A stretch of 53,892 nucleotides of DNA, filler included, from Basidioascus undulatus (Eukaryota): the NCBI GenBank assembly GCA_000826855.1. It is 3 parts of 3 records of this genome, joined end to end, with 100 filler letters (N's around TTAATTAATTAA, not from the genome) between each part and the next. Parts side by side here need not be neighbours in the genome. Positions count along the whole stretch, not along the records: positions 1 to 17,912 come from JTLS01000502.1; 2 more parts are not named here. One strand, written 5' to 3'. The translations under genes and the position numbers were made by a program. The notes below the pieces were generated by a model. That model was not told where the DNA came from. It did not search any database and was given only the letters and a program-made list of their open reading frames with translations. Below, one piece after another: positions 1 to 42,547 of the stretch (position 1 is the first letter of the stretch; each line of letters opens with the position of its first letter).

Positions 1-70
1 TAGTCAGATACTCTACCATTGAGCCAGCCGGCCTTGACCGACGCAGGGATCGAACCTGCAACCCCCTGAT
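1..70 (-). tRNA. tRNA gene with halves in permuted order (3' half 70..35, 1-nt spacer at 34, 5' half 33..1); probably tRNA-Arg(ACG); anticodon cut off by the contig end
   Basis: Minus strand reads A-TCAGG-GGGTT-GCAGG-TTCGATC-CCTGC-GTCGGTC-A (3' half), then A, then GGCCGGC-TG-GCTC-AATGGTA-GAGT-A-TCTGA-CT-A (5' half). The acceptor stem GGCCGGC/GTCGGTC pairs fully (2 G-U), the anticodon stem TCTGA/TCAGG pairs, and the D and T arms are canonical. Arg(ACG) is inferred from A34, the CTGA-CTA...ATCAG arm and the short variable loop. Confidence 0.8.
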
Positions 71-270
71 CTCGACTACCGCTAGCTTACGCTGCTGGTG
101 ACAAGCTAATGTCCAATTAAATTGGTAAGAGCAATGAAAGGTCGTCAAACAGGTGACTGAACAGGTCTGTTCTTTCCGAACCACTCCTCAACCAGTTATT
201 AGGCTATCTCCTCTTGGCTTGTTCCTGTAGTCTGTGCAACGACGACAGCGCGGTGCGCACGCGAACGAAC

Positions 271-2265
271 TCCCAGGACACCCTGGCAGGATTCGCCGTC
301 ATGGCTGCAAGTTTCCTTCGGCAGGGGCAATCACGTATGGCCGTCACAACACAGCACCCTTTTTCTCCAACTGACCCTTTTGCTGGCCGGGGAATGGGCC
401 AGTTCTGGACGAACGTCTTCCCCACACAGCTCGTGGAGCGCCATGCGAGCGAGATCAAGCGTTTTAAGTACGTTGTTAAGATCATGCGCTCGTTCGAGCT
501 GCTGTTCGCGCTCATCCCGATCAAGGTCACCTTGAAGCTGTTCTTGTTTTCTGACGATTGAGTACTCCTTACATTCGTTTCTTCTTTATCGACTCATTCT
601 GAGTCCCGGCTTCATGCAGATTCATAAACTACATGATATACCCGAGGTATCGTGCCCTTCGAGCTGGTCTTGACTGTACGCGGGCGCGCTGACTGAACGT
701 CGACTGCCTGGCTAGCCTCGCCCTATTCCTTGGTAAGCGCTTCTACTGATCTGCCGAAAATCTCTAACCAAGTCTCCCATACTCATCAGGCACCCGCAAT
801 GCAACGCCTGATCTGCCGACCGTCATGATGGAGCGTCTCTACACCTCACCGACATACGGCATGTGTGAGCATGTTGCTTGACGTTCAACCACTCTACATT
901 TACACAAATTCAGTATATATCATTGGGAACAGGGTATCCCGTCGACGACAAGAGCCTCTCGAGCAACTTGCCGCCCATGGTGTTGTTTCCCGAGCGAGCG
1001 AGTTCTACAAGAAATGGCAGAAAACTGTCGAGATCGCGGTGTTAACGTAAGCCATTCAACTCGTACGTTCCAAACACGAAAGGAATTGACACATTCTTTC
1101 AATCTCAGATTCGGTTGTCTACCGAAGTAACGCAGGTCGTCGAACGCAGCAAACGCAGTGTTCGGGTTGCCATCCGCCCGCGTCGAGCGCAGCCGGACGG
1201 GCACAACCCGGCGGGCGCTGACCAGGACCTACCAGAGACGCTCGAGGAATACGCCGAGCTCGTTTTCTGCGTTTTAGTCGATACTGCGGAAAGACGACGA
1301 GATGGATCGATCGTGCCATCTTGGGGCGCACGAAGTGGTCCGAAGATGTCCTGTCATCCATAATGCGAGTGCTCCGTTTTAACCGTTCCTTTCACACACA
1401 GGACGTGGAATACATGGAGAAGTGGTTCACGCCCCACTTCTCCGAGGATCTCGCAGGGTCCGACCTCCATGGGCGGGACGAGTCCGACCGCATCAGGGTA
1501 GGAAAAGCTTCAAGCCGTAAGCACGATATTTTTATAAACTTAAGACTAGCATTACAATACATCTCCCTGCAGCATCTATTACGTCGAACAGGTGCGTGCG
1601 CTTGCGAATGCGCCGCTGCTGCCGGCTCGAGCTTAGGTGTATTTCGCAAGCAGGTTCCGGACGACTCTCGCAAGTTGGTCATGTGTTTCGACTGTTCCGC
1701 ATTTCAGTATCAGTTCCCCAAGGTGAGTTGGACGACTTACAGCGAAGCTCGACCAGCGGCTCAGTTACCTCTATTAGGACAAACCTTTCCAGGATCACGT
1801 CTTCCAGGTCTGCTTCGAGCTCATGACAACGCTTTCGTCCCACCGGATGTCTTGTTGACAGACTTTTCCCCATTGAACAGACCATTTCCCTCAACAAGAA
1901 GCACGAGCACACGTGGCCAAAGACGAAATTGCGAAGGACAGGATCAGTGCGTCGGTTTGGTGCCCTGACAACAAGCTGCTTCTCAACTTTTTCTCAGTCC
2001 ACGAAGACTGGTGGCACTAGCTCAGCTGTGTCACTCGTGGACGCACTACGCTTTCGTCGTCCCCTGGATGTGTCTTCTCAACGGCGCGCGCTCGACCCGA
2101 TTCGCTGCCGCGTGGACTCTGGTCAATGCGCACGAGCTCGCGGTGATCTCGGGCATGGCCGTAGCGTATTCGCTCGGTGCCGAGTACCCCAAAGAGCTGG
2201 AGCAGGATTCGTTCGCGCTCTTGTGTTTCCGACTCTACCTCCTTCTTAGCCATGGGAAGTGGTAG
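271..2265 (+). pseudogene. Degraded FAD/NAD(P)-binding oxidoreductase (fungal amine-oxidase-like family)
   Basis: Exon fragments LQVSFG, FWTNVFPT, LALFLGT, MERLYTSPTYGMW, LPPMVLFP/SEFYKKWQK and FAAAWTLVNAHELAVISGMAVAYSLGAEYP match this family as recalled. Frame breaks at ~995, ~1031 and ~1290; apparent GT->TT donor mutation at 558; no N-terminal GxGxxG exon found. Confidence 0.7.
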
Positions 2266-2415
2266 CGGAAGGGTAGCAATCGAACTTGATATTGATGTGA
2301 TGTACCCGCATGCTTTCATGATAACCCCACATTGCACGTGAAAGCGACGAGTATTCCCTGTGTACGAGAATGCGATGCATGCAGATGAAATCCAAAACAA
2401 GGAAAAAAACCCTCT

Positions 2416-5400
2416 CTACTCCTCCGCCTCGTCCTCCTCGTCGCCCTTAATGTTCGCCTGTGTCCTGTGTGCATTTGAAAAAGGCTCATCAGCAACCGCC
2501 CGCAAATGTGGGCTGCTTGCAAACGTACCAGGCCACCGCACGCCGCTTAACCTCCTCCACGCCCTCCTCGTCATCGGCATCCTTCTCCATCGCCAGCCAC
2601 TTCTTGAACACCGACTTCGCCTTCTTGCTAGAAAGCTTGAGTGCCAGAACGCGGTCGAAGATTGCCCTGAAAGAAACCTTGTCAGCATCGCGAGGGGTTG
2701 AAGTCGAGTCCGCAGAGGAAACGCACCGGATACCGGAGAGATCGCCCTGCTTGTTTAGCATGTCGGCGTAGACGAACCAGAGGTCGAGCTGCTTCGGGTA
2801 GGAGTCGACAATGCCCTCGAAGAGCGTCTTGCCGCGCTCCGCGTCACCGAGCTTGAACTCGAGCTGGGCGAACTTGGAGATGGTGTGGACGTCTGCGGAG
2901 GAGGCGGTTAAGCACGGCCGACGGGATGATGCGCAACACGGTCGAAGACGTACGATCCCGCTTGTCGAGGCTCTTCAAGGACCGAGGAAGGAGAGCACGC
3001 GCATCGTCGACGCGACCTTGCCGCATGTAGTACTCCGCGAACGCGACCCACACGCGAGGCGACGCGCCGAACTTCTTCGCCGCACGCTGGTAGATCTCCT
3101 CCGTTTTCTGTGACGCGCAAGAGTAGGGTGAGCAACAGCGGCTGCTACGCGAGTGTATCAAGACATACCTCGTGCTTGTCAGCCTGCTCGAGAATCGAGG
3201 CCAATCGCAGATGGATCGTCTCCGCGTCGTTGTACTGCGCCGCCTCCTTGAAGACGGTGTCGAGCGTCTTCTCCGTGCCGTAGGTGTTCTCGAGGTTGAG
3301 CAGCGCGATCCAGATGTTGAGCTTCTCCTGCTCCTCGCGGTAGCCGATCGCCTTGAGCGCGCGGCGGCCGACCTCGCGCGCCTTGTCGACCTCGGACAGC
3401 TGCAGCTGGAACGACATGTACTGGATCCAGAGGAACGAGGAGTTGGGCGAGCCGAGCAGCAAGCGCTCAAAGTCGGTCGTCGACTCGGGCGCCTTCGTGG
3501 ACAAGTCCTGCGTCAGGTCGCGCTCGATCGTCGTGCCCTTGCGCCTCTTCTTCTTCTTCCCGTTGTCTTCGTCTGCGGACGCGCCCTCCTCATCGGAGTC
3601 GGACTCCAGGCCGCGCGCGTCGAAGTCGTCGTCCTCGTTCTGTGCGGACCAGCTGAAGCCGCCCGACAGCTCGAGCGCTTGCACCGGCGCCTTGGCCTTG
3701 GCCTTAGCGGACGGCGCGGAGGCTGCAGGCTGCGGTCGTGAGGGAGCGGGTCGTGAGGGAGCGGCGTCCTGTCCCGGAACAGAATGAGCAAGCCGCTCTG
3801 ACCGAAAGATGCACCCGCGTGTACACGTACCTCATCGTCGCTGCCATCCTCGACAAAGTCGGCGTCCTCGCCCTCCTCGTCGTCCTCGTCGTCCTCGCCC
3901 TCTTCATCATCGTCCTCCCCCTCGTCCGAGCCAGCGCCCTGGGCCTCCGCCATCTCGACGTCCCTAACGACAACGCAGATCAACTACAGGGATACATGGG
4001 AAATCCAGGTAGACTGCGGAGAACGTACTCGTCCTCGTCGTCCTCATCCTCGTCGTCCTCCTCCGTCGGCCGTGCAAGATCCGCCTCGAAGTCGTCCTGG
4101 GTGAAGTAGCTAGGCTTGAGGCCGAAGCTGATCTTGCCCTTCTCCTCGTCGATCGAGAGGATGATCGCCTTGACGGCGTCGCCCTCCGAGAACGCCTCCA
4201 GCGCGCGCGCGACGTCGGCCTTCGGATCGTCGGCGAGCTGTACAGCGCAAGGATCAGCCATGATCACGCAATAAAGATCCCAATGTGATGGAGAAAGTAC
4301 CTCAGACTTGTGGCAGAGACCGCTGACGTTCGAGCCGTCGATGCGCAGGAAGACGCCGTACGGCTCGACCTTGCGGACGGTCGCTTTGACCTTGTCGCCG
4401 ACGGAGAAGTCGGTGAGGCGAGCGGTCTTCTTCAATGCCTTCTCGCTGCGCAACGACAGCTCGACCTTCCTTGACTCGGCGTTCGCGCTGAAGATGAACC
4501 CCCGTTTGTAAGCGTCTGGTTAGAACAGGCGATGCAAGAACCAAGATACCTCAGCACGCGACCCTGGACAAGCTGACCCTCATTGAATCGCGGCTTCCAC
4601 TCCTTGACGAACTGGAACGCCGAAAGCTGCGTGAGCATGCTTCAGGAAACATAGTTTTCGGACATGGATACGCACCTCATCAAACATCTCGCGAATCTGC
4701 ACGCGAGCGGTAACGCCCCTGCCGAGAGCGACGAACAAGCCGGCGTCCGAGATGTTGGTGACGAAGCCGCGCAGTGTCTCCCCGACCTTGAGCTCCCCCA
4801 CAGCGCCAATCTCGCGGTCCGCGACCTTGCCCTTCTTTGCCGGGTTGACGCGCGACGGGCGGGTCGAGAGGTCGACGGTGCGCTTCGAGCGGTTGACGTG
4901 GACGACGACGCACTTGATCTCGTCTCCCGGCTTGGGCGTCGTCTTGTCCGCGACGAGCGCAAAATCGTCAGCGAGGTCGGTGATCGCGAGCTGGCCCCGC
5001 ATGTTGGACGAGATCTGGACATTGAGGCCTTTGGCGCTGCGGCCGACGACGCGCCCGGGGAGGACCTGGCCGTCCTTGAGCGAGTCGGTGTCGAGCGGCT
5101 TGGACGGCCCCGCAGCCTGGACCTTCGCGCGCGGGTTATTGCTGACGATGACGATGCCCTTGTCCGGGTTCTTGGAGACCACCATCAGGTCCGGGAGCGT
5201 CTCGCCCGTACGCACGCTCTCCCGCAGCGCAGCGACGCTCAGCCCCTGGTGGTGCGCGAGGTTCGCGATCGAGCACAGAGCGCGCGTCTTGTTGGGCTCG
5301 AGGAGCACGACGATGTTCGGCTCCCGGAACTCCGACACCGTGCCCGTGACGGCGCTGCCGATCTGGATCGACGCGAGCGGGTCGACGACCTCCTCCGGCT

Positions 5401-8149
5401 CCGCGCCCTCGGCAGACTGCCGGATCGATGCAAAGATGCGGGACGCGTCGCGCTCGACCTTCGTGATGCGGACCTTGACGAGCTGGCCGAGGTAGAGGTG
5501 CTCCGACGGGTCGCGAGTGTAGGTGTCGCTACGAATGAGTGCAAAATTGTCAACAGGACAACGCAGGATTCAATAGATTTTCAAGTGAACCGTACCTGAT
5601 CTCCCCAAGCGAAACGAACGCGCGTCGACGGCCGAAGAAGTCGACCAGCACGCCCTTGTCCTTGAATGCTGCGACGACGGCGTGCGTGACCATGCCGACC
5701 TTGGCGTCGTCGATGTCGGCGACGATCGGGAGGTCCGACTTGACCAGGCTCTTTTTGAGCGTGACCGTGACGCGGTTGCGCTCAGGCTCGGCGGTCAGGA
5801 TCTGCGTATTCCTCATCATCAACTCAGGGCAATCGCATCGACAGTGGAAGGTCAAACGCACCCTGCACTTGACCGACACCCCAACCTTGTACTTCTTCTC
5901 CGGGTTCTTGAGCCTGACGTCGGAGAAGTGGAGGGGCCAGACGAGCGCGTCGACGTTGCCCTGGATGGCGACGAAGATGCGCTCGCTCGAGACCTTCTTC
6001 ACTGTGCCCTGGACGACCTCGCCGACCTTGGCATCGCTGACACGCATGAACGCCTTGTCCAGCACGGACGCGCGCAAAGAGAGCTGCACCACCCCGTCCG
6101 CGAGCGCGATGCCCACCACGCGCGCGCGGTGCTTCGACCCGACGCGGTACGTCCCGGCGTGGCCGGAGATGGAGGGGACGTGGTCGTCGGAGATTTGGGA
6201 AATCTGGCGGACGCAGAACAGAAAATGAGCATCTCCATGTGCGCAAGGTGGCAAGAGCGGTTTAGTGGGCAGTAACGTACGTGAACGAAACCGCTCATGG
6301 GCGAGTCAGGGATGGAGACGACGAGGCCGCGCTCGCTCTCGACGCGGACGACCTTGACAGCGTCGATGATCATCCCGCGCGGGTACGCCTCGGCGGGCTC
6401 GAGCTCGCCCTCGCCGACGGTGATCTGCTTGAGGCCGACGAGGTGGGGCAGGAGTGAGAGCGCGAACCGCTTCGGGTTGCTCGTCGGGGAGTCCCACATC
6501 AGGCGGGCCTTGATCTGATGCCGTAGAGTCCAACCGCATCAGCAACGACTCGACGGGACGGAAAGGAGGGAGTAAGCACCTTCTTCCCTACGGGGAACCG
6601 CTCCTCGAGCGTGCCGGGCGCGAACGGGATGTGGTCGCGGTCAATCGTCCCGTCGAAAAAGCCAAGGAACTTGACGTTCAGCCCCATGGGTACAACAGCG
6701 GTGATGAGGCCGTTGACGAGCGCGCCGGGGAGGAGAGACGAGAGGGTCGAGGCGGAGGTGAGCTGTGAGGGCGATCAGTCAGCTAATGAGCCAAAGGCTT
6801 GGTGTGAACAGGCTCACGATGGTCTGCGCGTTCAAGGTCGGGTCCGGCGAAAGCGTGCAGGTGCGGGTGTTTTCGGTCACGGTGGAGACGGTGAGGGGGA
6901 GGAGCTGGCCGAGCTGGAGCGGCTTGTCTGTAACATATGAAGGATAAGCGACAATCTTCATCGGGGACCCAGTCAAGCCTGACTTGCCGTCAGAGACGAG
7001 ACCAGCCTTTTTCAGATCGCCGTTCGAGACGAAGCCGTCGACGTCCGTCAGGCCGAGGTCGATCAGGTAGCCGTGGTCCTCCTGGCTCCGGACCGCGCCG
7101 GTCACAGTCTGATCCAACAACCACCAATCAGTATAACGCGCTCGCCTTTGTCCACCGAATCTAAGTAACACTCACGAATCCCCGCTGGAGGTCGGCCTTG
7201 ACGACGCCCTCATTCACCGCCTTGGGGTCAAGCGTCAGCTCGACCTTCCGGCTCGCGCGGACGAGCTCCTCGCCCTCCTTCGTCACGCGCCCCGCGGCGC
7301 CCGCGCCCGAGTGCACCTCCGCGACGGCCGCGCGGACCCACTGGCCTGTGTGGAAGAGGTCGTTCAGGCTCGGCAGCCCGTCGTCGTCCTCGTCGTCCTC
7401 GTCGTCTGATTCGGCGGAAGAGGAGGCGGACGCGGCGTTGGCGGCGGCGGTGAGGCGGGAGGTGAAGATCGAGGAGAGGTTGGTGATGGGAACGTGGCCG
7501 AGGAGCTGGCTTGGGAGAGAGAGGACGAGCTCGAGGGGCGTGATGAGCGCGATTTTGCAGAGGAGCTTGGTGCCGGGGGTGAGACGCTGCGGTAAGGGTT
7601 ATACGAGTCAGCTTTAAAATGCGCTGAAATGCCAGAAGAACTGCATGCGCACCTTGTAGTTGAGGTGCTCCACCCGCAGCGTCTCCGACGTCTCCTTCCC
7701 TCCCTCCGTCGCGGTGGCCTTCTTCGCCTTAGCCGCCCCCACGCTCGTCCTCGCCTTCTTCTCCTTCTTCGACTTAGTAGAGGCCGTGCCATCCTACTCT
7801 CCCCCCACACACGTCAGCCTCATCCTATCCACCCGCCAAGCTCAAAAGAGAAGACGGAGTCCCGTACCTTGAATAGCTTGTCCTCGTCCTCGGCCATCTT
7901 GCGCCCCTCTATGCCCGCCTCCCGCAGCTCCACCGGCGTCAAGCTCGTTCCGCCCCCACGCGGGAACGCGGCCTCGTTCACGTCCATGCGGGAGGCGGTC
8001 GGGGCGGCTGGGGCAGGGGCAGGGGCAGCGTCGCCATCGAAGCGGCGGTGCTTCTTGGCCGGCGGCGCGCCCGCTGCCGCGGCCGCTGAGTCGCTCTTGC
8101 GCGGCGCCTTCTTGTCGGTGTCGTCGCGAGAGCGCTTTTTGGTCGACAT
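2416..8149 (-). CDS. RRP5: rRNA biogenesis protein Rrp5 (S1 repeats plus C-terminal HAT/TPR repeats), multi-exon
   Basis: Starts MSTKKRSRDD...FPRGGGTSLTPVE. Many S1 repeats (e.g. GDKVKATVRKVEPYGVFLRI). HAT region has DFERLLLGSPNSSFLWIQYMSFQLQLSEVDKAR, YREEQEKLNIWIALLNLENTYG and KKAKSVFKKWL. Confidence 0.96.
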
Positions 8150-9423: not shown

Positions 9424-9597
9424 GAGTCACTCTACTAGAGCGCTTGGAAAGTATAATGGAAATAATCACTTGAGTGCTCTCAAGTTTCCTACTCCTTTGC
9501 TTGACCTGTCGTTCAAAGCCGCCTTCCGAGCGACTGAACTGCTAGCCACACTCTAATCCGCACACCAACAGCATATCCACCATCGCTCCAAGATGCA

Positions 9598-10701
9598 TCA
9601 CACCCCCAAACCCTCCACCCACCCCTTGTCCAGCCCGGCGAGCCCCTCCGCGTCCGCACGCGCCAAGCACCGCGCGAGCACGATCGTCTCGCGCGCCTCG
9701 GCCGCCTTGACCCACACGCGCCCGTTCGTGCCCGTCGCGAGCTCGAAGGGGAAGTCGAGGAGCGCGGAGAGGCGGTCGAGGATGGGGGAGGTTGGGCGGA
9801 GGAGGCTGGTCCGCGTGTGTGAGCTCCGGCGCAGGGGGGAGGAGAGGGAGGGTGAGAAGCGCACTTTCTGCAGAGGCCCAGGGAGAGACCCTCGAGCAGG
9901 AACCCCTCCTTGAGCTCGCCGAACCCCTCGCCCTTACCCGTATTCGGGTTCACGCATTCCAGTTCCGTCTCCATGTCCTTGTGCGCGAGGCTCACACGCG
10001 CATAGACGAGCGTGCCTACCTGTTCGCGAGCGGGCCCAACTCATCATCAGTATGGGCGTTCGTCCTCGAGGAGTCGGAGTCGAAGTCGCCCGAGGATAGA
10101 AAGAGTGAAGAGGAGAGCGTGTCAGGGACGAAGAGGAATACGAAACGCACCTTGAGGTTCGGCTTGTTCCGCTTTGTGGCGCCCTCGAAGGCGAGCGCGT
10201 CGAGCGATGCGTGCGAGGACGAGGCGATGTCGACGCGGTAGCCCTCTGCATGGCGCGCTGAGATGATGCCGATAACGGACTCGCCGAGCGCGGGGAGATA
10301 CTGCGGGTTGACAACTTCAACTTCAGCTTCAACCACGCCTCACGAGCACCAAGAGAAAGGCACCGCCCACTCACCCGCTTGCCGTTCCCCTCAATCCACC
10401 ACCTCTCCCCCGCCCGCGCCTTGCCCTTCTCCTTCTCCTTCTCCTTCTCCGCACCCGCACCCTGCATCTCCACGCCCCCTTCCTGCTGCTGCTCGCGCTT
10501 CACGCCCTTCCCCGCCAGGTAGCCGAGCACCCCAGCCCGCACAGCAACGACCGTCTCTCCCCTGGCGCCAGTCCCGGCCGTGCGCTTGTCGACGACGTGC
10601 AGGACGCCCGGGCCGAGCGCGATGGGCGCGGCGGCGGAGGAGGTGGAGGGCAGGGAGAGCGGGAGTGCGTCGCCGGGAAGGACGACGGCGGGGGAGGACA
10701 T
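9598..10701 (-). CDS. RRP40: Exosome complex component Rrp40
   Basis: MSSPAVVLPGD...IALGPG; YLPALGESVIGII...EGYRVDI...ASLDALAFEGATKRNKPNLK; AHKDMETELEC; GFGELKEG; PFELATGTNGRVWV. Confidence 0.95.
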
Positions 10702-11228
10702 GGTTGATAGGGGAGTGGGGATATCGTGTCGGTGCGGGTGGGAAGGAGGTGTGCGGTGGACAATAATGAGGATGAGGGTGAAGGGACAAGGATGGCAAGC
10801 GCGAAGACGGTCGCGAAGAGCGTGAGAGTTTCTGCGCAGCTTCATCAAGCGGAAAAGCTCCGCCTCACCGTTTCTGGCGAAACTCCACGCAGTTGGTCAC
10901 TTCGTTGCAAATGCTCTCCAAAGACGGGAATATAAAGGCTCTATCCCGCATTATAGGTGCTGCCAAGAATCAGCATACAGGCTCAAAACCAGCTCTACTT
11001 ACGTAAGCTGTGCAGGCAGGTCAGCGCCGGACAGAATCACCCCCAAGAGCCCAATCGACAATGCTCTGCGATGCAAATATTCCCCCTCCGAGATCCGGAG
11101 TGTCCGCAAGCTGAGACCCCCCATGCTAAGACCCCGTCAGTGCCCAGCGAACCCATTCGTCCGGCAACACACACTCAAGACGCGATGAAAGCATAGCATG
11201 CATGCCTCCCGAGCCTCCTCCGCAGGTG

Positions 11229-17912: not shown

Positions 17913-18012
17913 NNNNNNNNNNNNNNNNNNNNNNNNNNNNNNNNNNNNNNNNNNNNTTAATTAATTAANNNNNNNNNNNNNNNNNNNNNNNNNNNNNNNN
18001 NNNNNNNNNNNN
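17913..18012. other. Artificial contig spacer (N44-TTAATTAATTAA-N44)
   Basis: Exactly 100 bp; the central 12-mer (17957-17968) puts stops in all six frames; identical to the second spacer. Confidence 0.97.
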
Positions 18013-35908: not shown

Positions 35909-36008
35909 NNNNNNNNNNNNNNNNNNNNNNNNNNNNNNNNNNNNNNNNNNNNTTAATTAATTAANNNNNNNNNNNNNNNNNNNNNNNNNNNNNNNNNNNN
36001 NNNNNNNN
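35909..36008. other. Artificial contig spacer (N44-TTAATTAATTAA-N44)
   Basis: Same 100-bp structure as 17913-18012; 12-mer at 35953-35964. Confidence 0.97.
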
Positions 36009-38639: not shown

Positions 38640-41600
38640 CTACTCAACCAGCGCCGCCACTGCCTCGACAACCTCGTCCGAGCTGGTAACGTGCCACCCG
38701 GCCAGCGTGCGCTTGTTGCTCGGCCCGACGGTCGTGGCAAACACGGCGTCGTGGTGGAGCTCGAGGTGCGCGGGCTCGGCCGTGTCTGAGCCTTCGAACC
38801 CGAGCGGCGGGGCGAGCGTCGGCCCGCTCGCGTGACCCGAGGCGCCGCCGGGGACGGGCGAGGTGGGCGAGGCGACGAAGAGCGCGGAGAGGGAACGGAA
38901 CATGTCCTCGTCCGTCTGTGGGTTTCAATGTCAGTACGATATCTAGAGGGCCTTTGGAATAAGGGATAGCGCACCTTGTCGTCCCCCGCGCAAAAGACGA
39001 ACGACGCGTCGGGGTGCTTGAACAGGATGCGCTTGACAATCTCGCCCTTGTTGACCGCGAGCGGGCGGACCTCGAGGTTCTTTTTACCGACCAGGACTGT
39101 TATCATCCCATTCCACACATACACATCAGCACTCGCACTCCGAATCTAACAAACGCAGAACGCGAACGCACCCTCGATAGGCTTCTTCGGCACGAGGTTG
39201 CTCTCCAGCAGGTCATGGCACTGCTTAGCCTGGAACGAACTGAGCGGCATCAACCCAGGGCCTGTCAGCTTTGTCGGAAAGTGGAAGGAGCCGATGACAG
39301 AGTGCGGCTCACCCGAAGTCCGCGTCGCAGTTCCTGTAGTGCCATGTGACGGACGCCTTCTTGCGCTCGATCTGGCTGCCGGTCGTGCGCTGTTCCGTTC
39401 CGATCCCACATCTCACTCGTCATCAGCCATGCTCTTATCAAAACCCACTTCTCACTGTGCACCCACCTCAGTGTAGTACCTAAAGATGTCGTGCGCGTCC
39501 TCCATCCAGCTCATGTCGAGCTGCTCGGTGAGGTTCCACCAGCTCGTGCTGTGCGGCTCGCGGATGAAGCAGCCGTGCTCCGCGGACAGGCCGAGCGCCT
39601 CGATGTGCCCCAGGTGCTCCTCCAGGAACGCCCCGTCCCGGCCAGACACGATGTAGACGATGTTCTTCGGGTCCGCGGCGAGGATGGGCAGGATCTCCTT
39701 GAGCCTGTTGCCCGGCACCGCGTGCGCGGGGACCTTGACAATCGGCGTGAGCGTGCCCTGCGTGCGTGAATTGGTTTTCCAAGTAAGCATATGTGGGAAG
39801 AAGGGGAATGGAAGGAAAGGGGAAGGGAGAAGGACGCACGTCATAGTCGAATAGCAACAGCCGCTTCTTCGCCGCCGCGTACTTCTCCTTCATGAGCTCG
39901 ATGTCCAGCAGCGGGGTCGCGCGCGCGGTCTGCCCGACGCCGAGGTTGCGCAACAGATCCTTGACGATCGTGTACGCCCACGTGTGCGCAGTGTGCGCCG
40001 TCACGCGCTTGTACAGCGCCGCCTGGCGCTCTTCCTTCTCCGCGTCCGACATCCGCAGCGCCTTGTCGATCGTCCGCGCCGTCCCGGCGATGTCCCACCT
40101 GCAGTCCAGTTCATGCCAGTCAGTCGGCCTGTCTACCGTTTGGCTCAGGGGAAAGATGAGGCAAGACGCACGGGTTCACCCGGACCGTCTCGTTCAGGAT
40201 GCCGGCGATGCCGGTGAACTCGGAGAGGATGAGCGGCGACTTGTACGTCTTGGACTGGCAGAGAATGTCTGCGTCACAAACAAATGTCAGCGTCTCTTCT
40301 TCGGCAGCTGAATCAGAACAGACGCACACTCCAGCGAAGTCGTGTTCATGCCGTCGCGCGTGGCGGTGATGAGGCCGAGGTCGGCGACGGACAGGAGCGC
40401 GTAGTACTCGTCCTTGTCGATCGTCTGGTGGCTGTTTCGCCCGGCCCATCAATTACCATCAGTCGGGCGTCCCAGTCCTGAAAGTCGGAAAGCGACCCAC
40501 TAGTGGTGCACGGGCGTAAAGCCGAGCGAGCCAAACTCGCTGTTGATGTGCGAGACGAGGTCAGAGACCTTGCCCTCGAGCTTGGGGTCCTCGTATAGCG
40601 CAGGCGAGGTGACCTGGATGAGGACGACCTGTATCCGTTGGGCAAGTGCGCTCAACAGTAAGCATCTAGTACCCCAGGACTCTCTCCCCTTCGAGATGCG
40701 GCGACGCACGTTGTTACGCCACTCGGGGAAGTCGGCCAGGAGCTTGTGGAAGGCTTGAAGCTGGAGTACGGGGGAGGTTCCTGTCAGTACGCGATGTTTC
40801 TCGGCGCACGTAGAATTAAGGAGATCCGCTCGCGCACCTTCTGAACGACACCCTTGACAGGGTCGAGCTTGTCGCGCCCAACGATGATCTTCTTGCCCGC
40901 GTACAGCTTGCGGAGCGCCTCAATCTTGGGGACGACGCCTGCCTGATCCCTATTCGGCAGTCCCAACACCTGCATCAGCCACCTGTGCCGGAAAATGAGA
41001 CAGCTTGCTTTGCCCAACGCACCTGTCCGCCTCGACGCGCTTGGCGTCGACGCCGATGGCGCAGTGCGAGATGGCGGTGTTGAAGCCGTTGGCCTCGACT
41101 CCCGTCGGGCTCGACTCGAAGCCGCAGACGCGGATGCAGGAGGAGAGGAAGTGGCGCGAGTAGGAGTATGTCTGCGCGTCGTCAGGGGGAGGGGTGAGCT
41201 TGGACGGAACGAGTGCGGATTCCGCACTGCACAAAGAGACAGGGACCACGCACTTGGAAGCAGACGAGGTTAGAGCCGAGCATGCCCTCGAGGATTTCCC
41301 TGCGCCCTGTGTCCCGCCCAGTCAGATGCATTCCCTTTCCCCAGACAAGAGGTGAGGAGAGGAGGTAGCGCACTCGGCAGGCAGCGGAAGATCTCGGACG
41401 AGGGGAAGGGCGAGTGGAGGAAGAGGCCTACGTATACCTCGGAGATGATGGCGCGGAGAAGCTTGGGGACCAGGAGGAGATGGTAGTCGTGCACGAGCAC
41501 GAGGTCGCCCGGCTTCCAGATCTCGGCGACCTTGCGCGCGTACGCGATGTTCGCCTCGAGGTACGCCTGGTACGTCGCGTCGTCCGACTCGATCTCGGGG

Positions 41601-42547
41601 AAGACCTCCTGCCAGAGGAGGTAGTGGAAGAGCGGCCAGAGCGCTGTGGGGCGGGATGGGTTTTAGCAAGCAGGACTGAGGAGTCGGACAGGGAATGCAG
41701 CGCCTACTCGTCTTGCAGTACCCCTGCCATCCAGACCGCGACGTCAGTGCCTGCATCCCACTCCGGAGCCACTAACTCGCCCACGCACCTCATAATGACC
41801 ATGCGCGACCTTGTCCTCCAGCCACACGGGTGCCCAGCGCATGTCATCCTCCTGCATCTCCTTCTGGGTCCTGAGCTCCTCCTCCAGCGCCGCCTTGTCC
41901 CTCTCCGTCAGACTCCCCGCCTCGATCAACTCTCCCGTCCCGCTGCCAATCCGCAGATCGCCGGGCCACCCGACGGTCGTCTGCCTGAACTGCGCGCCGA
42001 GGCTGCGGATGCCGGCGTTCATGGCCGTGTGGCCGCGGCGGTGAGTAAGGGTCCACTTGGGTGCGCTCCCCGTCGAGTACGTCGAGACGGTCGACAGGCG
42101 GCGGCGGCGTTGGTGCGCGGGCTCGCTGAGGGGCTCGCCCTTGTCCCCACGCTTCTCGAACCCAACCTGCTCGACCTCGGTGAGCACGGGGCGGGGCGGC
42201 GCGGACGTCTCAAGCGCGGAGCCGGACGCGTGCTCGTCGTCCGAGTCGAGGCCGTCGCGCTTGCGCGGGGCGAGCGTGCACACGAAGGGGAGGTAGTGCG
42301 AGACGTGGATAATGTGCCCCGAGAGCTCGATGCCCTGCTGCTTGTACTCGTCCATGAGCGTCGAGATGGAGTGCTTGATCTGCGCGGTCCACCCGCCCCA
42401 CCCAGCGGCATCAGTCCGTCGCTCCCCCGCGGCCCGCCGTGGAGCTTCCCACCGCCGACGCACCTCCTCAAGCGTTTGCTCCGGTCGTCTGAGCTCTGGC
42501 GGCTCGGAAAAGTATTCGATGTTGGAGTGCGCCTCAGGCTCAGACAT
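38640..42547 (-). CDS. TPS2: Trehalose-6-phosphate phosphatase Tps2 (GT20 domain plus HAD phosphatase)
   Basis: LWPLFHY, VHDYHLLLVP, FLHSPFPSSEIFRCLP, GRDKLD and RDGMNTT; intact HAD motifs LFDYDGTLTPIV, VSGRD, LSAEHG, NKGEIV and GDDKTDEDMF. Confidence 0.93.

Follow-up and report, generated by a model that had tools for sequence, protein, structure and literature searches.

A back-to-front tRNA locus in a basidiomycete: a candidate member of a circularly permuted tRNA gene family

Some discussions treat permuted tRNA genes as remnants from early in tRNA evolution, others as a peculiarity of algae. In 2010, Maruyama et al. reportedly described type II genes, in which the break lies at 37/38, in Ostreococcus and Micromonas. 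Published permuted tRNA genes come from Cyanidioschyzon merolae, prasinophytes, chlorarachniophyte nucleomorphs, and Thermofilum (PMC3978253) and also from Auxenochlorella (PMC12633428), and the permuted tRNAs of O. tauri and B. natans are discussed in a review of 2026. According to PMC3978253, the intervening sequences of permuted tRNA genes are 1–74 nt long, and 37/38 is the commonest break among those of green algae. The same source describes a maturation route via the splicing endonuclease, an RNA circle and RNase P, which has been demonstrated in Cyanidioschyzon and is a proposal in the case of green algae. Among the titles listed for the literature on permuted tRNA, fungi included, none concerns a fungal permuted tRNA, with subscription journals lying outside this scope, and a term search of a paper on a related genus (PMC4500085) gave no mention of tRNA.

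In this study, we analyzed a stretch of fungal DNA of 53.9 kb (the whole of which is called the window in the following), one end of which carries the two halves of a tRNA in reversed order. For comparison with positions 1–600 of the window, contigs of four public sequencing runs, here called X1 to X4, were used. X1 and X2 comprise about 34 Mb of contigs each and possibly represent the source organism, so that they are not independent of the window. X3 is a soil metagenome, and X4 shares its sample with X2. The contigs of X4 sum up to 15.7 Mb and cover only positions 1–75 of the 600 bases compared; this run was taken as DNA by guess, its total size would fit a transcriptome, and no inference on expression was drawn from it. 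Parts of positions 1–600 that are uncovered in X3 and X4 carry no weight as evidence. For X1 and X2, the reading of the contigs rests on the best 8 of 53 and the best 8 of 55 matches, respectively, and that of the loose ends on 13 of 23, so that contrary cases may exist among the others. The contigs of both runs are presumably unbranched paths of 31-mers (k = 31).

A fungal host had been assumed in an earlier note on this DNA, and the protein-coding genes of the window bear this out. An exon of a Tps2-type gene shares 86% identity with Wallemia ichthyophaga and no more than 68% with Agaricomycotina proteins, which assigns the window to a basidiomycete near Wallemiomycetes. The genes are split by many short introns starting with GTGAGT or GTGCGT and ending with CAG. 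For a piece of RRP5, the best database relatives are only about 43% identical, pointing to a thinly sampled lineage. The window consists of three contigs connected by linkers of the form N44-TTAATTAATTAA-N44 (17913–18012 and 35909–36008), which are six-frame stop spacers; adjacency across them is therefore no proof of true linkage. The contig ends flanking the linkers are purine-rich low-complexity runs.

At the beginning of the window, the minus strand reads in the order leader (80..71), tRNA 3′ half (70..35), spare A (34), and tRNA 5′ half (33..1), where the sequence ends (Table 1). Position 1 corresponds to A34 of the 5′ half; nt 35–37, the trailer and the terminator lie beyond the window. 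Between the acceptor 3′ end and the 5′ end, the intervening sequence consists of the single A at 34. On the same strand, the B box (56..47) lies ahead of the A box (26..16), and an AT-rich block is located about 45–55 nt upstream of nt 38. The arrangement of 3′ half, one A and 5′ half is the one given in the earlier note, and reading of the sequence confirmed it.

Table 1. Coordinates of the features of the permuted locus, of its upstream region and of protein-coding genes in the window.
Feature	Position	Strand	Basis or remark
tRNA 3′ half, nt 38–73	35..70	minus	pairing; ARAGORN on re-ordered halves
Anticodon-stem 3′ strand	69..65	minus	within 3′ half; A38 precedes
Variable loop, 5 nt	64..60	minus	within 3′ half
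T arm GCAGG/TTCGATC/CCTGC	59..43	minus	within 3′ half
Acceptor 3′ strand GTCGGTC	42..36	minus	within 3′ half
Discriminator A (A73)	35	minus	end of 3′ half
Spare A separating A73 from G1 (one-base intervening sequence)	34	minus	sequence reading
tRNA 5′ half, nt 1–34 (no nt 17)	1..33	minus	truncated at sequence end
Acceptor 5′ strand GGCCGGC, then TG	33..27 (acceptor strand)	minus	within 5′ half
D arm GCTC/AATGGTA/GAGT, then A26	24..10 (D arm)	minus	within 5′ half
Anticodon-stem 5′ strand TCTGA	8..4	minus	within 5′ half
C32 U33 A34 (CTA)	3..1	minus	last letters before sequence end
Proximal leader GGTAGTCGAG, candidate intron-type 3′ end	71..80	minus	conserved in nearly all copies
Extended leader: TCACCA, 2–3 variable bases, AGCGTAAGC, TAGC	81..104	minus	subfamily of copies
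AT-rich TATA-like block, candidate upstream promoter	111..125	minus	AATTTAATT at 123..115
A/T run in loose-end contigs X1-89, X2-89, X2-92, X1-93, X1-94, X2-104			hand reverse-complement reading
RRP5 exons (S1 repeats)	3983–6305	minus	
Exosome subunit RRP40 exons	9516–10896	minus	
Tps2-type gene (glycosyltransferase 20 + trehalose-phosphatase)	38640–41850	minus	at least 10 short exons, introns 60–90 nt

The two halves had also been described as complementary in both stems that they share, and this holds at every position: the acceptor stem is paired at 7/7 positions, including two G.U pairs, and the anticodon stem at 5/5, including the wobble pair U27.G43. The D stem (4/4) and the T stem (5/5) are likewise fully paired. 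By random pairing, seven pairs would be expected with a chance of 0.001 and five pairs with a chance of 0.007. For the detection of tRNA genes, we used ARAGORN, which called none in the 53.9-kb window and none for the halves in native order. After the slices had been re-ordered, with NNN inserted at nt 35–37, one 72-nt tRNA with the anticodon a.. was called, and among 200 shuffled 5′ halves re-ordered in the same way there was no call (0/200). On their common strand, the 3′ half comes first and the 5′ half second, and jointly they form a canonical cloverleaf. With up to 3 mismatches allowed, neither a second 5′ half nor a second 3′ half was found in the 53.9-kb window, in agreement with the earlier statement that no other 5′ half had been found upstream.

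No Rfam family reached its gathering score in the window, and no tRNA match was obtained at E ≤ 1. The sole match at E ≤ 1 over the whole window was YrlA (RF02553; 67..3, minus strand), which was discarded as an identification since its 30.4 bits are below the gathering score of 69; the match can be attributed to the like order of T arm, acceptor and D arm and indicates nothing beyond this order. In minimum-free-energy folds, the cloverleaf was not singled out (z-scores of −0.85 and −0.54 against shuffles, in a shifted register). On the minus strand from 130 to 1, no run of four or more T was present.

The leader had been likened to the 3′ end of an intron on account of two pairings with the anticodon region, and both pairings are possible. 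Bases 78..74 are complementary to G30–A34 at 5/5 positions, and the G at window position 73 can pair with C32, which is a pair of the eukaryal anticodon-intron type; the two registers are mutually exclusive. Derivation of the leader from a decayed 5′ half was rejected, as its local alignment score of 10 was matched or exceeded by 1770 of 2000 shuffles. The anticodon stem resembles that of eukaryotic tRNA-Arg(ACG). This likeness, A34, and C35 as predicted by the pairing of the leader together suggest Arg(ACG) as the probable isotype.

The junction A73-A-G1 (36..33), on which the earlier proposal depends, is crossed by contigs in all four runs (X1, X2, X3, and X4). The depth of the unique flank 101–600 (18.2 in X1 and 55 in X2) served as single-copy reference. 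Over positions 1–80, the summed depth amounts to 1,940–3,337 in X1 and 6,133–8,095 in X2, i.e. 107–183 times single copy, and is contributed by 53 contigs in X1, 25 of them with at least 99% identity, and by 55 contigs in X2. A 56-base contig identical to 9–64 has a depth of 175 in X1 and 473 in X2, equivalent to about 9.6 and 8.6 copies, and this exact match at about 9–10 times single-copy depth substantiates the multicopy element that had been suggested before. A 53-base contig on 12–64 with one difference has a depth of 298 in X1, about 16 times single copy. From these two contigs, the copy number is at least about 26, and it is perhaps above 50. In X3, a 151-nt contig covers 1–81 with three differences counted, and the spare A at 34 reads T (minus strand), the only difference within 1–81 among those listed; X3 also carries the unique flank 246–444 with 2 differences in 199 bases. 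The reversed junction is thus present in the genome in many copies and is no artefact of a single assembly. In pattern searches, the exact junction had 0 matches in metagenome contigs and 0 in genome contigs, and a looser pattern from T loop to D loop with a gap of 19–29 nt had 0 in metagenome contigs and 0 in viral contigs.

The contig identical to 9–64 spans exactly nt 44 to nt 26 and forks at positions 8 and 65, from which it follows that copies differ at nt 43 and nt 27. These two fork positions are the partners of U27.G43, the sole wobble pair of the anticodon stem. As judged from the fork positions, the variation would be restricted to this pair, in which single changes are tolerable, and may reflect a pairing constraint, possibly with covariation.

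To both sides of the tRNA halves, the limits of conservation can be located. The depth of the bin 61–80 is 96% (X1) and 85% (X2) of that of the bin 41–60, and in the bin 81–100 only 239 (X1) and 579 (X2) are left, about 7% of the bin 61–80. This drop at 80/81 means that the 10-base leader is common to nearly all copies and that homology mostly ends there. The depth of the bin 81–100, about 13 times (X1) and 10.5 times (X2) single copy, belongs to an extended-leader subfamily of about 10–13 copy-equivalents, which has a leader of about 35 bases behind an AT-rich block. Variants of the extended-leader motif recur in the loose-end contigs at 77, 85, 89, 92, 93, 94, and 104. Beyond the extended leader, the flanks of the copies differ, and in X1 the leader is attached to a variety of mostly AT-rich flanks in at least 14 contigs. 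The GC content of 105–135 is 0.32 compared to 0.60 for the window, and a run of at least seven A/T is located at 111–124 in the window and occurs in 6/6 listed loose-end contigs that reach this region. With respect to its composition and position, the AT-rich block 111..125 is a candidate promoter. At the other side, a contig of X4 (record 19) runs from 42 to 1 plus 3 bases and stops after nt 37. The conserved block has 10 + 36 + 1 + 37 bases and is bounded by both canonical splice-site positions.

With a probability of roughly 0.45, and hence tentatively, we regard the locus as one member of a dispersed, functional family of circularly permuted tRNA genes, probably for tRNA-Arg(ACG), in a basidiomycete. 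Gene order, pairing, multicopy state and conservation limits are observed features of the DNA, and the splice-site boundaries at 80/81 upstream and at nt 37 downstream fit a permuted gene and count in its favor. A unit of this family would be composed of the AT-rich block, a leader of which the last 10 bases are conserved, nt 38–73, the spare A, and nt 1–37. Since the B box precedes the A box, RNA polymerase III would be expected to initiate at the upstream TATA-like block. In the folded transcript, the cloverleaf would have its opening in the anticodon loop, to which the leader would pair in the manner of the 3′ end of a canonical 37/38 intron. Leader and trailer would be cut off by the tRNA-splicing endonuclease, and a fungal ligase of the Trl1 type would seal nt 37 to nt 38, so that a circle of about 74 nt results. 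RNase P would then cut this circle on the 5′ side of G1, RNase Z or an exonuclease would trim off the spare A, and CCA would be added. Every one of these RNA steps, as well as the anticodon and the isotype, is a prediction from DNA. In the basidiomycete Cryptococcus neoformans, 132 of 143 tRNA genes carry introns, with 37/38 being the rule (PMC4090602), so that both the splicing machinery and the raw material for such genes are plausible.

Against a permuted gene family stands the summed depth over 1–80, which even when halved for overlapping contigs is large for a single tRNA family and in line with a repeat; also, a 63-nt head-to-tail form present in X4 (see below) is unexpected of a simple permuted gene, and the minimum-free-energy folds score no better than shuffles. 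In Saccharomyces cerevisiae, the splicing endonuclease resides in the cytoplasm and RNase P in the nucleus. With enzymes located in this way, splicing ahead of end-trimming would need re-import.

The alternative that survives best, although we consider it unlikely, is that the locus is a non-functional dispersed repeat derived from a tRNA, with the real tRNA-Arg genes having other positions and another sequence. The repeat might have arisen by reverse transcription and spread of a pre-tRNA that was end-joined or circular, and retro-origin from a circular pre-tRNA is a published scenario for permuted genes (PMC3978253). The high copy number, being at least about 26 from two contigs and 107–183 copy-equivalents in sum, would suit such a repeat, as would the end of the window sequence inside the element; tRNA-derived repeats are present in a subset of fungal genomes (PMC8450103), and identical copies could merely be young. 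The earlier interpretation as a permuted tRNA is supported in part: its layout, pairing, junction and fungal origin stood, and the copy number is high enough for the dead repeat to stay in play. However, the copies are bounded at both splice-site positions and not at variable truncation points, and the flanks of the subfamily are AT-rich by position and not random. Among the matches listed, the same 3′ half has no conventional context in the contig graph. Furthermore, a retro-copy in which the B box lies before the A box would be without promoter, and its repeated spread would be hard to explain.

Short head-to-tail arrays, to which we assign a low probability, would also place a 3′ half before a 5′ half. 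Their inner units would be ordinary tRNA-Arg genes with the 10-nt intron GGTAGTCGAG, separated by one-A spacers and co-transcribed, and the window would represent the left edge of an array, starting with intron plus 3′ exon. The 10 + 36 + 1 + 37 nt of the conserved block are exactly one intron-bearing gene plus 1 nt, the depth of 1–80 exceeds the sum of the flank contigs among the matches listed, and an assembler would halt inside an array. Head-to-tail forms are seen in X4, where a 93-nt contig (record 20) runs 42..13 and then 75..13 and thereby describes a loop of 63 nt. This loop passes through the pentamer GGTAG, which occurs twice, at 17..13 within the D loop and at 80..76 within the leader, and a 21-nt deletion between two GGTAG copies would yield the loop from an array unit. 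The mean depth of the loop contig is 32.7 compared to 60.7 for the other X4 contig, which fits a rare form; the loop may stem from a true tandem copy, from deletion within an array of intron-bearing units, from a circle that was read through twice, or from template switching at GGTAG. Contrary to what arrays would predict, no contig of X1 or X2 was matched in two pieces among the matches listed, although the listing is meant to retain matches at a joint. Wherever the sequence upstream of the 10-mer is visible (14 X1 contigs and the X3 contig), it is a non-tRNA flank and never the end of a 5′ exon, and the X4 contig that stops after nt 37 does so without continuing into the 10-mer. A bridging contig of about 60 nt is perhaps too short to appear, which leaves the array explanation standing in weakened form, and the outer halves would be permuted even so.

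We consider it very improbable that the locus is an ordinary intron-containing tRNA gene behind a relic 3′ half, although the sequence at this locus stops at nt 34 and the leader resembles the 3′ end of an intron. The window from 9 to 64 is identical to a contig of about 9–10 copies, and both this contig and the one on 12–64 cross A73-A-G1 unbranched. From the former it follows that no copy of that 3′ half runs into an ordinary trailer, and from the latter the same follows for about 16 variant copies, both conclusions resting on the presumed way in which such contigs are built; the path forks neither in X1 nor in X2. Among the loose ends listed (13 of 23), none is located at G1 or A73. The depth ratio of 3′-half bins to 5′-half bins is 1.1–1.7 and not 2, as opposed to what an additional relic would require. 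A single-copy contig of 4,220 nt in X1 (record 1; 18,542 nt in record 9 of X2) continues past nt 34, and no second 3′-half piece was found for the 4,220-nt contig among the matches listed. Continuation of the 5′ half into its own 3′ half, which the earlier note had named as one of the findings that would contradict a permuted gene, is opposed indirectly by the unbranched contigs 9–64 and 12–64.

An assembly or scaffolding artefact at a contig end, conceivable for a window chained from contigs via N44-TTAATTAATTAA-N44 linkers with the finding at one end, is extremely improbable in view of the same junction in contigs built independently from four runs, including a soil metagenome. Two other candidates were rejected. 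In a tRNA-derived SINE, the head would have the opposite order to the visible B box (56..47) before A box (26..16), and in dimeric co-transcribed tRNA genes of the yeast type, the upstream unit would not be without a 5′ half, of which the window holds one match.

Returning to a functional permuted family, a more far-reaching version of it is possible but somewhat doubtful, namely that the whole tRNA-Arg(ACG) family (tens of genes) of a Wallemia-related lineage was replaced by permuted genes with a one-base intervening sequence. If this were true, an essential fungal tRNA would be made only through a splice-ligated RNA circle opened by RNase P. Algae, nucleomorphs, and archaea would then no longer be the sole known carriers, the family would be the first large multigene family to be permuted, and the spread of a single permuted founder would be its likely origin. 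A working family would imply that an opisthokont with the ordinary heterotetrameric endonuclease and a Trl1-type ligase can acquire and spread the layout, and that in some fungal genomes an essential tRNA escapes standard tRNA finders unnoticed. It would also provide a culturable system for asking how splicing can precede end-trimming, and its multicopy state would allow the copying of tRNA gene families to be tested in nature. A dead repeat would still be a new type of tRNA-derived fungal repeat, although of modest interest.

In comparison with known systems, the type II genes of green algae (Ostreococcus and Micromonas) and of Auxenochlorella (PMC12633428) share with the locus the 3′ half before the 5′ half, a break that coincides with the canonical intron site, acceptor ends joined by a short intervening sequence, and an AT-rich or TATA-like region upstream that stands in for a usable order of A and B box. 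In contrast to these algal genes, the host here is a fungus, many near-identical copies take the place of single genes, the intervening sequence has only 1 nt, and the leader is more like a eukaryal intron end paired to the anticodon loop than like a demonstrated bulge-helix-bulge. For C. merolae (PMC3978253), the order of endonuclease, circle, RNase P, RNase Z, and CCA addition is like the one proposed here; the algal genes have several break positions and intervening sequences of 7–74 nt, and their circle is experimentally proven, whereas that of the fungal locus is predicted. A one-base intervening sequence is shared with the tRNA-Tyr of Thermofilum pendens (Chan, Cozen and Lowe 2011, via PMC3978253), which is unlike the locus in being archaeal, in having its break at 59/60, and in encoding CCA. 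Fungal tRNA-derived repeats and SINEs (PMC8450103, PMC5063351) are likewise multicopy, tRNA-derived and fungal; they have the A box before the B box and decayed cloverleaves, while the locus has the reversed order and all stems intact. YrlA, a Y RNA-like RNA whose tRNA-like module is naturally permuted, shows the same order of T arm, closed acceptor-like stem, and D arm, but it is bacterial and does not contain the halves of an anticodon stem, both strands of which are present in the locus.
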